In this document: positions 1,453-2,708 of the stretch, in pieces
Numbering within the stretch: the first letter of the stretch is position 1
How the letters are laid out: each line of letters begins with the position of its first letter
Source of the DNA: a virus
Taxonomy: Duplodnaviria > Heunggongvirae > Uroviricota > Caudoviricetes
Virus record (IMG/VR): IMGVR_UViG_2534681674_000036
Coordinates: 1-7,494 of that record
Strand: one strand, 5' to 3'
Length of the DNA stretch: 7,494 nt
Notes under the pieces: model-generated
Told to the model about the DNA's origin: nothing
The model's input: the letters and a program-made list of their open reading frames with translations, nothing else
Databases searched by the model: none
Made by a program: the position numbers and the translations under genes

Positions 1453-1749
1453 ATGCCAGCGCCTCTGTATGGTGCGGATGACGCGCGCCGCTGTTCCGGC
1501 AATTCCGTATCGGAGGTGCTGGATAAATTCAGGAAAAACTACGACAGGATAATGTCGCTACCGCAGGAAACGAAAGAGGAAAAGGAATTTCGCCACTGTA
1601 TATGGCTTGCAGAGAAAGAAGAACGCGAGCGAATTTACCAGACATCAATCCGACCATTCCGCAAAGCCACATATACCCACTTCCCTGAATATATCGACCC
1701 GCGCCTGCGTAATTACCGCTCACGCTATGGCGCTATCAGTAATGGTTGA
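1453..1749 (+). CDS. Hypothetical phage protein (98 aa)
   Basis: ORF with an AGGAG ribosome-binding site at 1442-1446, 6 nt from the ATG. It is packed in the operon with no recognised motif. Confidence 0.6.
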   Translation: MPAPLYGADDARRCSGNSVSEVLDKFRKNYDRIMSLPQETKEEKEFRHCIWLAEKEERERIYQTSIRPFRKATYTHFPEYIDPRLRNYRSRYGAISNG

Positions 1750-1759
1750 GGAATTAACA

Positions 1760-2050
1760 ATGAAAACAATGAAGCTAAACATCGACCTCGGCAAATACGT
1801 TATTACCGGAACCAAACACGACCTGATTCTTAGTGAAAGAGGAATTATCAAAGAAGGTGAGAATGCAGGGAAAGAAACACTAAGTCGTATCGGTTATTAC
1901 AGCAAGTTTGAGCATCTGGTTAAAGAGTTATGCAACCGTGAAATTCTGTTATCTCAGGCGCAGACGTTACAGGATATTCAGCAGCATATCGAGACTGTAT
2001 GTGTGTCACTTAGCATGGCTATTGACCAGTTCGTGGAGAGTAAATCATGA
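1760..2050 (+). CDS. Hypothetical phage protein (96 aa)
   Basis: ATG at 1760 preceded by GAGG at 1748-1751. The track's longer ORF (1607-2050) overlaps the upstream gene in another frame and lacks a ribosome-binding site. The stop TGA 2048-2050 overlaps the next ATG. Confidence 0.6.
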
Positions 2051-2211
2051 GGGGACTTGCATACAATCCCGGCATTCTTCCGGCAGAAATGATTATTCGC
2101 CAACGCGTAAAGCCAATGCCATCGAGAGAGGAATTGCTTAAGAGAAATTCTTTTCCATCAGTGAATCAAAACAAATATCTGAATGCGATGTGGCGGAGTG
2201 GGAAGAAATGA
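2047..2211 (+). CDS. Small hypothetical protein (54 aa), not in the ORF track
   Basis: ATG 2047-2049 overlaps the upstream stop as ATGA, and its stop TGA 2209-2211 overlaps ATG 2208 of the next gene as ATGA. It fills an otherwise non-coding gap in a tightly packed operon. No homology is recognised. Confidence 0.35.
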
Positions 2212-2708
2212 AACAAATGACACTAATTGAGATGGATGGTTTTCTGAAAGGTGAATGCATCCCACGAGATTTAAAGGTTAACGAAACAAACGCTGAATAT
2301 CTTGTCCGTAAGTTCGGTGAACTTGAATCAAAACTAGAAACGGCGTTGCGGGAGTGTCGTTCTGCTGGAATCACGATTGATAACCTTGAGGCCAAGTGCG
2401 CGGCGCTGGTAGCGGAGAGTGCGGGGATGAAGAAGTTCTGCAAAGACGCTGCATTCGATGCCGATTACGAAGCAGAGCTAGGTATGGAGCGTGGTGGATT
2501 CAGTGATGCGCTTAACGAAATCAAAACCCCAGCCACCGATGCTTTCCTGGCTGAAGTCCGGGCTAAGGCGTTTGATGACCTTTGCGCGGCGTTCGTTAAG
2601 CACGCGTCGGTGTCCGGGCTGGACGATGGCGACTGCGTTACGGTGAAAGAGGCGACTGACGCTCTGCTGCATTGTGCGGAACAGCTTCACGAGGGAGTGC
2701 ATTCATGA
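2208..2708 (+). CDS. Hypothetical phage protein (about 166 aa); start ambiguous (GTG 2190, ATG 2208 or ATG 2217)
   Basis: Long ORF in the operon. ATG 2208 is favoured by the ATGA overlap with the upstream small ORF. The stop TGA 2706-2708 overlaps the lar ATG 2705. Confidence 0.6.

Follow-up and report, generated by a model that had tools for sequence, protein, structure and literature searches.

Four coupled genes at the end of a lambdoid recombination module: a P22-type Abc2, two constrained small early proteins and a mosaic relative of the OLD inhibitor Oad2

Background

What functions are encoded by the small, tightly coupled genes that lie between the recombination genes of a lambdoid prophage and its excisionase and integrase genes? 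The question is raised by four genes at positions 1453-2708 of a 7,494-nucleotide stretch of Caudoviricetes DNA (positions 1 to 7,494 of IMG/VR record IMGVR_UViG_2534681674_000036), the whole of which is referred to here as the window. An initial annotation of this DNA described four uncharacterised genes with no assignable motifs, chained by overlapping stop and start codons into a Lar-type anti-restriction gene, and proposed an anti-defence island whose function was assigned by its association with Lar. We report a computational analysis of these genes, of the families to which they belong and of the loci in which they recur. They are referred to throughout as genes 1 to 4:

1453..1749, + strand: gene 1, abc2 (98 amino acids), identified by PF11043, phrog_656 and RefSeq
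1760..2050, + strand: gene 2, DUF5405 family (96 amino acids), identified by PF17399 and phrog_154
2047..2211, + strand: gene 3, DUF2737 family (54 amino acids), identified by PF10930
2208..2708, + strand: gene 4, EaE/HK97-gp37/Oad2 family (166 amino acids), identified by phrog_614, synteny with HK446 and BLASTP

RecBCD is a hub of bacterial immunity, and phages that disable it are detected by abortive-infection systems, of which OLD and some retrons are examples. The Abc2 protein of phage P22 binds the RecC subunit of RecBCD, recruits the host prolyl isomerase PpiB via its residue Pro68 and stops the response to Chi; RecBCD made blind to Chi in this way lets the phage's own recombinase use DNA ends.

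The explanation that we favour as a whole, by a modest balance of probability, is that the four-gene stretch is a portion of a leftward early (pL) operon in which the recombination module ends, with a homologue of Abc2, and the variable accessory ('ea') region begins, with a mosaic relative of the OLD inhibitor Oad2 at its far end. Between the two lie a pair of small early proteins that are conserved across many phages. In what follows the evidence for each gene is given in turn, the surrounding locus is then described, and the competing explanations are weighed against one another before the locus is compared with those of known phages.

Results

Gene 1 as a P22-type Abc2

Gene 1 matches the Pfam family PF11043 (Anti-RecBCD_p2) at 203.4 bits, where the cut-off is 25, with an E value of 4.7e-61 over residues 1-97 of 98; it matches phrog_656 (abc2) at E 1e-55 and carries the RefSeq label 'phage anti-RecBCD protein'. 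Comparison with P22 Abc2 itself (PDB 8B1T chain A / 8B1U) gives E 2e-55 over residues 1-97. Counted from the 8B1T alignment, there are three substitutions in residues 1-66 (63/66 identical), the portion that is modelled on RecC, and the RecC-binding helical region, residues 3-66 in the cryo-EM structure, is conserved in gene 1. Residue 68 of gene 1 is a proline, so that Pro68 is kept; according to the cryo-EM study, Pro68 of P22 Abc2 sits in the active site of PpiB, and the P68A result identifies this residue as necessary for the co-purification of PpiB (PMC9836394). On this homology we conclude that gene 1 encodes Abc2, the P22-type anti-RecBCD protein. The premise of four uncharacterised genes without assignable motifs therefore falls: gene 1 is matched by PF11043 and by the structure 8B1T, genes 1-3 all belong to Pfam families and the family of gene 4 includes Oad2.

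The position of gene 1 agrees with its sequence. It closes, on the promoter-distal side, a module that runs in the order Rad52-type recombinase, single-stranded-DNA-binding protein (SSB), exonuclease and Abc2. A survey of 325 lambdoid phages, published in 2025, defines the recombination module by four functions, SSB, nuclease, annealing protein and anti-RecBCD protein, in varying combination (PMC12315714), and the window carries all four of these functions in a row. Gene 1 belongs to this recombination module and its product is among the best-studied proteins of the region.

Gene 4 as a mosaic member of the Oad2 family

Gene 4 encodes an acidic protein of 166 residues that is predicted to be all-helical. 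It matches phrog_614 at E 1.7e-54, its PHROG matches are those of a mosaic protein, and in tblastn searches its first 40-130 residues recur in proteins annotated as EaE in P22-like phages. By BLASTP it is a homologue (E 3e-57) of HK446 gp27, for which a function has been described. In a July 2026 bioRxiv preprint, a random library of HK446 was screened for rescue from the lethal effect of P2 OLD in cells deficient in recB, and gp27, subsequently named Oad2, was recovered; gp27 alone was sufficient to rescue OLD toxicity in the recB-deficient host and to abolish OLD defence (10.64898/2026.07.10.737580). Oad2 binds OLD, an ABC-ATPase/TOPRIM nuclease, in pull-down and gel-filtration experiments, forming a stable complex, inhibits the cleavage of tRNA by the OLD tetramer and blocks OLD activation, and the authors consider the locus to be a hotspot for anti-defence genes linked with recombination modules (10.64898/2026.07.10.737580). 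The same work found that the HK75 homologue, which is 54% identical to gp27, gave no protection against OLD (10.64898/2026.07.10.737580). Our own alignment of HK75 gp28 with gp27 also gives 54%, exactly the preprint's figure, which confirms the identities of the genes in the preprint.

The similarity between gene 4 and Oad2 is unevenly distributed. Residues 1-75 are 92% identical (69/75) and the rest is 24% identical (25/106 columns), while for the inactive HK75 gp28 the corresponding identities to Oad2 are 91% and 29%. Since the remainder of gene 4 is only 24% identical to Oad2, and that of the inactive HK75 homologue 29%, the anti-OLD activity of Oad2 is not transferable to gene 4. On sequence and location, we place gene 4 in the Oad2 family by its position and its N-terminal module, and we claim no anti-OLD activity for it. 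As to position, linkage was counted in two sets of loci, 80 of them fetched with abc2 and 80 fetched with gene 3, and in 77/80 of the loci fetched with gene 3 the N-terminal module of gene 4 follows gene 3 directly. Within gene 4 we distinguish four parts:

2208..2432, + strand: N-terminal module, residues 1-75, conserved across the family
2433..2525, + strand: hypervariable central cassette, residues 76-106, in which DNA identity to HK446 is lost
2526..2564, + strand: hinge, residues 107-119, invariant or nearly so in the alignments and an island of DNA identity to HK446
2565..2708, + strand: C-terminal module, residues 120-166, which travels with the lar-like gene and has a GC content of ~57%

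The alignments reveal the same architecture across the family, with a conserved N-terminal module, a hypervariable centre, an invariant hinge and alternative C-terminal modules. The N-terminal module of gene 4 is 87-89% identical to those of HK75 gp28, HK620 HkaH and HK106 gp33. The fetched loci contain 128 complete family open reading frames (ORFs), which represent 100 distinct sequences of 92-301 residues; a single cluster holds the N-terminal modules of the distinct sequences, and clustering of the rest at 60% identity yields 20 clusters. The C-terminal part of Oad2 is a singleton among the 128 ORFs. Furthermore, the 106 nearest relatives in the database in which both anchors are present contain at least 12 unrelated central cassettes.

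The window itself carries a mosaic joint within gene 4. Across 2400-2800 the GC content rises from ~43% to ~57%, and the identity to HK446 DNA is lost at this joint, except for the short island over the hinge, which is a probable recombination joint. In the fetched loci, C-terminal modules that are at least 95% identical to the type found in the window always lie directly upstream of lar and have the same ATGA overlap with it (L021, L095, L102, L121 and L123). The 3' end of gene 4 and lar are thus one mosaic segment, and abc2, gene 3 and the 5' end of gene 4 are another.

A relationship between gene 4 and the Ead/Ea22-like protein that is encoded further along the window was considered and rejected, as a profile comparison gave it a probability of 0.4%.

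Genes 2 and 3 as constrained small early proteins

The ORFs at 1453-1749, 1760-2050, 2047-2211 and 2208-2708 are all present in the sequence, as initially annotated, and on several grounds they are genuine genes. Each of genes 1-3 matches a curated Pfam family, and gene 4 has 7831 homologues. The pN/pS ratios, computed against related alleles that are not independent, so that the figures are rough, are 0.13 for both gene 2 and gene 3 and 0.35 over codons 1-75 of gene 4. A ratio of 0.13 for each of genes 2 and 3 indicates that both are under purifying selection. We conclude that genes 2 and 3 encode small early proteins that are real, under selective constraint and without an assignable function; for either of them a role as a counter-defence factor is possible, at a likelihood well short of even.

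Gene 3, with 54 residues and a pI of 11, matches PF10930 over its full length at 107.7 bits, where the cut-off is 25 (E 2.6e-31). Its counterparts are P22 orf56, HK97 gp38, HK620 HkaI, Sf6 gp23 and HK446 gp28. The linkage of gene 3 to abc2 is close: abc2 lies 16 nucleotides (nt) upstream of gene 3 in 79/79 of the gene-3-fetched loci that include upstream sequence, the linkage holds even where Abc2 has diverged to 63-80% identity, and gene 3 is present in 71/79 of the informative loci fetched with abc2. That DUF2737 needs Abc2 was also considered, and this proposal is weakened by Jersey-type phages that have a DUF2737 core and no recognisable Abc2. The seven viral contigs in which gene 3 is affected by a deletion (L058, L060, L063, L064, L065, L075 and L076; for example, L058 2700-2800) show that phages lacking it occur in nature, and they may represent one lineage.

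Gene 2 passes the PF17399 cut-off narrowly, at 24.6 bits against 21.6 (E 3.6e-5), and matches phrog_154 at E 3.3e-32. A GAGGA Shine-Dalgarno sequence lies 6 nt before the ATG at 1760, and because of this spacing we favour 1760 as the start over 1769, the start given by RefSeq. The DUF5405 family includes Sf6 gp24, HK446 gp29 and P2 Orf83; Sf6 gp24 is 95% identical to gene 2 and its record reads 'similar to phage P2 gene Orf83'. Homologues with ~33% identity lie immediately upstream of replication gene A in phages of the P2 type and, in the T4-like Morganella phage MP1, beside a gene for an SbcC-like nuclease subunit. Others lie beside exonuclease genes in 186 and in Yersinia P2-like phages, and the family also occurs in podoviruses of ~70 kb and after GamL-RecT in Klebsiella prophages. 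A gene for a DksA/TraR-type zinc-finger protein is found near DUF5405 in P2-like phages and again in Klebsiella lambdoid prophages, which are unrelated to them (L171/L172 4001-5195), and this association may be a conserved one. The 97-residue protein that precedes DUF5405 in the Klebsiella prophages was examined as a candidate divergent Abc2 and rejected; it does not align with Abc2 and looks like a helix-turn-helix protein.

In a profile search of 1.84 billion representatives, the DUF5405 family has 937 members, nearly all of which are stand-alone proteins of 85-100 residues, and a scan of the longer members found no informative fused domain. The AlphaFold2 model of gene 2 is confident (pLDDT 91) and consists of a four-stranded sheet followed by two helices, which superposes on the DUF5405 proteins of BFVD with TM scores of 0.74-0.82. 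A Foldseek search of the PDB with this model found nothing below E 0.36, and a search of viral models found only uncharacterised phage proteins, including some of Bacillus, Lactobacillus and Cellulophaga phages. Neither by motif nor by fold did gene 2 match a nuclease, primase or helicase. The profile searches and structure predictions that the initial annotation had called for have supplied families for all four genes and, for gene 2, a confident fold that has no functional match, while for gene 4 the prediction is a poor one. We found no experimental basis for the label 'replication initiation protein' that PHROG 154 and RefSeq give to the family, and P2 Orf83 is listed as 'unknown'.

Of the 80 loci fetched with abc2, 15 carry gene 2, each time precisely between abc2 and gene 3, and it behaves as an optional cassette.

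Searches of PDB sequences with genes 2, 3 and 4 gave chance-level matches only, and the NCBIfam and PADLOC searches gave no match for genes 1-4. A full-text search of the literature found no functional paper for DUF2737, DUF5405, P2 Orf83 or HK97 gp37/gp38. The supplements of one accessory-gene screen (PMC12373910) contain no peptide that matches genes 1-4 and give no function for DUF2737 or DUF5405; its companion preprint names Abc2 as a known control. In a Salmonella Montevideo prophage listed in these supplements, the genes that come right after abc2-DUF2737 on the downstream side include one for a flagged DUF262 protein, and the hotspot may hold both defence and counter-defence genes.

The surrounding locus and its transcription

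The window ends with a lambda-type excisionase, an integrase, the lambda attachment core and the chromosomal gene ybhC. An exact copy of the lambda att core, GCTTTTTTATACTAA, lies at 6150-6164 on the - strand, between int and ybhC, and marks the end of the prophage. From the lambda-type xis and int, the att core and ybhC at its end, the window is identified as the left arm of a lambdoid prophage that is integrated at att-lambda next to ybhC. The E. coli chromosomes NZ_CP027587 and NZ_AP042682 are 100% identical to the window. The genes of the window all lie on the + strand and those that flank genes 1 to 4 are:

1..372, + strand: 3' end of a Rad52/Rad22-family single-strand annealing recombinase gene; the reading frame stays open up to a TAA at 370-372 and the identical gene in NZ_CP027587 is annotated as Rad52/Rad22 family
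373..879, + strand: ssb, phage single-stranded-DNA-binding protein (PF00436, E 1.6e-36; RefSeq ssb)
888..1436, + strand: 3'-5' exonuclease, Rv2179c-like/DnaQ-type (PF16473, E 2.8e-73; phrog_255 exonuclease, E 2e-86)
2705..2938, + strand: Lar-family zinc-ribbon protein (PF14354)
to 3521, + strand: Ead/Ea22-like gene (PF13935, E 2.8e-24)
3523-4071, + strand: DUF551 gene
4064-4348, + strand: ASCH-domain gene
4408-4719, + strand: small zinc-finger protein (phrog_3680, E 2e-69)
from 4810, + strand: xis and int

The Ead/Ea22-like gene starts at 2844 in RefSeq, where it would overlap lar by 95 nt; with the GTG at 2925 as the start, the Pfam Ead_Ea22 match extends from profile position 1 and the overlap is only 14 nt, and this looks like the better choice. 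The product of 4408-4719 has a weak match to a ClpX-type C4 zinc finger (E 0.015).

The ATGA stop/start overlaps at 2047-2050, 2208-2211 and 2705-2708 are present in the sequence as first described, and genes 1 and 2 are separated by 10 nt. Tight spacing and ATGA overlaps of this kind are ordinary in phage early operons, however, and the chaining is no sign of a shared function. Within 1-5100 no sigma-70-like promoters were found, where 6.4 would be expected, and terminator-like hairpins on the coding strand occur only at 4350-4401, just 3' of the ASCH-domain gene, and at 4760-4779, just 5' of xis. This pattern of promoters and terminators fits one polycistronic leftward early transcript, as is expected for N-antiterminated pL.

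The product of the gene at 2705, which had been assigned as Lar-type anti-restriction, passes the Pfam cut-off for PF14354 (38.5 bits against 28.6) but falls below the NCBIfam cut-off for TIGR03655 (29.4 bits against 39.6). It is 26% identical to Rac Lar/RalR (11/42 residues, E 8e-5), in the zinc ribbon only. Rac Lar (L174 2734-2928, - strand) is the founding member of the family, and in E. coli K-12 it now carries the annotation RalR, a toxin with endodeoxyribonuclease activity that is paired with an RNA antitoxin, RalA (PMC4041452); no Rfam family was detected in the window, for which the Rfam and tRNA scans were both empty. The Lar-like zinc-ribbon protein may relieve type I restriction, though it is distant from the tested protein. 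It could be an anti-restriction protein or a toxin-like nuclease.

Discussion

A proposed mechanism and the points that weigh against it

OLD and several retrons fire when RecBCD is disabled. Abc2, by homology, would modify RecBCD, and a phage that tampers with RecBCD would gain from an adjacent inhibitor of the system that guards it. Such a gain could account for the linkage of gene 4 to the recombination module, because tampering with RecBCD is what the guards detect. In this mechanism gene 4 would be a specificity variant of an Oad2-type inhibitor with another host target: residues 1-75 would be the constant part and the swappable central and C-terminal cassettes would set the host protein that is bound. 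As these cassettes differ from those of Oad2, the target of gene 4 is probably not P2 OLD itself. On present comparisons the anti-defence reading may be called supported for gene 1 and plausible for gene 4. The suggestion that the region between the recombination module and xis/int is a hotspot for counter-defence is borne out to this extent, with gene 1 as Abc2, gene 4 as a positional homologue of Oad2 and the locus type described as a hotspot by the authors of the Oad2 preprint.

A more far-reaching form of this mechanism, which we put forward tentatively and consider unlikely, is that the family of gene 4 is a modular inhibitor platform, in which a constant N-terminal module is combined with interchangeable central and C-terminal cassettes that each neutralise a different OLD-type ABC-ATPase/nuclease or other guard of RecBCD. 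The gene 4 of the window would then be an inhibitor of another target, and DUF2737 would be a partner in the hijacking of RecBCD or in the silencing of its guards. Should the family indeed consist of cassette-swapping inhibitors of guards, a prophage locus as common as this one would amount to a natural library of counter-defence specificities.

Several observations weigh against the explanation that we favour. The Oad2 work is a single preprint, and gene 4 differs from Oad2 in exactly the region that separates the active Oad2 from its inactive HK75 homologue. The trigger of OLD that comes from this type of locus is gp33, not Abc2 (10.64898/2026.07.10.737580), and its position is upstream of the window; the pairing in which Abc2 triggers and gene 4 rescues is therefore one that we infer, since the trigger in the preprint is gp33. 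The predicted structure of gene 4 is poor (pLDDT 43, all helices) and gives no fold support for any mode of binding, although so poor a model would fit an extended or partner-dependent protein. As regards gene 3, a 77-nt deletion truncates it after five codons in 7 of the sampled loci, so that at least one lineage can do without it. Its C-terminal 30 residues have a shorter relative in virulent Salmonella phages of the Jersey type, where this DUF2737 core lies within a run of small genes without a recognisable Abc2. Finally, an IS3-family element breaks the operon just upstream in the two nearest complete genomes, in which the block may not be expressed normally.

The IS3-family insertion lies in the recombinase in one of these strains and in the exonuclease in the other (L001 4745-5958; L175 2662-3875). 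The copy in the window is uninterrupted, which makes it a third, intact copy, and in some strains the prophage is decaying.

Alternative explanations

The alternative that survives best, which we nevertheless rate as unlikely, is that genes 2-4 are accessory factors of replication or recombination, like P22 Abc1 and Arf, which aid the recombinase and the Abc2-modified RecBCD, or the changeover to rolling-circle replication. There is precedent for such an assignment in Abc1 and Arf, which are small helpers of unknown mechanism, and genes 2-4 come straight after the recombination module. Gene 3 is seldom separated from abc2 and the DUF5405 homologues adjoin genes of DNA metabolism in unrelated phages. 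Against this, the canonical modules are contiguous, without extraneous genes, and genes 2-4 are not counted among their members (PMC12315714). The optional occurrence of gene 2, in only 15/80 of the abc2 loci, and the deletion of gene 3 in one lineage are difficult to reconcile with helpers of this kind, and the name 'replication initiation protein' for DUF5405 is a PHROG name that lends the assignment no experimental basis. For gene 4 there is the further difficulty that its homologue gp27 has a demonstrated anti-defence activity and that the extreme variability of its cassettes is unlike that of a housekeeping recombination cofactor.

It is improbable, in our estimation, that genes 2-4 are instead modulators of lysis and lysogeny or of host physiology, which would tune induction or growth in the manner of the genes of the lambda exo-xis region and of Ea22. 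They do lie in the same genomic zone, between the recombination genes and xis/int, and an Ead/Ea22-like gene follows the block immediately downstream of lar. Some relatives of gene 4 (for example, P0071) have an Ead/Ea22 domain, and relatives of Oad2 are found fused with EaD/Ea22, a protein that has been studied in lambda lysogenisation (10.64898/2026.07.10.737580). The family of gene 4 is nonetheless unrelated to the Ea22-like protein of the window, by the profile comparison given above, and no regulator-type domain, such as a helix-turn-helix, was detected in genes 2-4 with Pfam, PHROG or NCBIfam. One study in which a P22 prophage with an eaC-eaE deletion yielded no viable phage might be read in favour of such a role, but that deletion removes many genes and says nothing about EaE by itself.

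The initial proposal, that four uncharacterised genes and Lar form one coherent anti-defence island whose function can be read from the association with Lar, we likewise regard as improbable. The genes are indeed translationally chained into a gene of the Pfam Lar family, and the type of locus has been called an anti-defence hotspot (10.64898/2026.07.10.737580). The first gene is, however, the characterised Abc2, and Lar is a weak anchor for the remainder: it accompanies the abc2/gene 3 block in only 2/80 and 5/80 of the loci in the two sets, it forms, with the 3' end of gene 4, a mosaic segment of its own, and the homologue in the window is distant from the protein that was tested. Better anchors, Abc2 and Oad2, lie inside the block. 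Of 5426 complete E. coli genomes, 1483 contain parts of the 1453-2938 block and 5 contain the full five-gene combination at a coverage of at least 80%; the block of the window is a rare assortment of common modules. With gene 1 in the recombination module, gene 2 optional, a mosaic joint running through gene 4 and Lar rarely present, the block is not one coherent unit. What remains of the proposal is the less specific notion of a hotspot, with the anti-defence reading of genes 1 and 4 at the strengths given above.

That genes 2-4 are of no use to the phage, as mosaic filler or selfish cassettes kept by linkage, is very improbable, for although the genes 3' of abc2 form a highly mosaic set, with gene 2 optional and gene 3 lost by deletion in one lineage, the purifying selection on genes 2 and 3 (pN/pS 0.13), the 937 representative clusters of DUF5405 across very different phages with a confident, conserved predicted fold, and the activity of Oad2, a relative of gene 4, all speak against it.

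Comparison with known systems

The closest of the known systems is HK446, in which gp30-gp29-gp28-gp27 (Abc2, DUF5405, DUF2737 and Oad2) have a gene order and coupling identical to those of the window, including the ATGA overlap of gene 3 with gene 4. The two DNAs are ~96% identical from 1453 to ~2563, a point that corresponds to gene 4 residue ~75-118. Beyond the N-terminal module the two part company: the central cassette and C-terminal module of HK446 gp27 are unrelated, or only weakly related, to those of gene 4 (24%), and gp27 is followed straight by xis/int, whereas the window has the Lar, Ea22-like, DUF551 and ASCH genes in this place. The recombination modules differ also, that of HK446 consisting of Erf with gp31 and that of the window of the Rad52-type recombinase, SSB and exonuclease.

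In P22, abc2-orf56-eaE have the same order as Abc2, DUF2737 and the EaE family in the window, but abc1 lies upstream and there is no DUF5405 gene. P22 EaE has only the hinge and its flanking segments in common with gene 4, the N-terminal modules being 25% identical. Sf6 resembles the window in the order SSB, nuclease, abc2, DUF5405 and DUF2737 and in having a Lar-family gene nearby; its genes 25-20 are abc2, gene 24, gene 23, gene 22, an ead/Ea22-like gene and a Lar-like gene. It departs from the window in that gene 22 differs from gene 4 and in that Lar comes after the Ea22-like gene, not before it.

Outside the lambdoid phages, P2 Orf83 is a member of the DUF5405 family of gene 2 (~33% identity over ~90 residues) and a small early protein of unknown function, which is flanked by a DksA/TraR-type zinc-finger gene and by replication gene A and does not adjoin a modulator of RecBCD. 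The Lar/RalR protein of the Rac prophage and the Lar-like protein of the window share an N-terminal CxxC...CxxC zinc ribbon and both match PF14354.

Nothing in the locus overturns current knowledge: every gene falls in a family that is already named and the arrangement is already found in the sequenced model phages HK446, Sf6 and P22. Genes 2 and 3 represent widespread phage families that are still without a function, those of P2 Orf83 and of P22 orf56 and HK97 gp38, respectively. What is new here, modestly, is a variant of the Oad2 family with different cassettes, together with a documented modular structure of the family and of its linkages.

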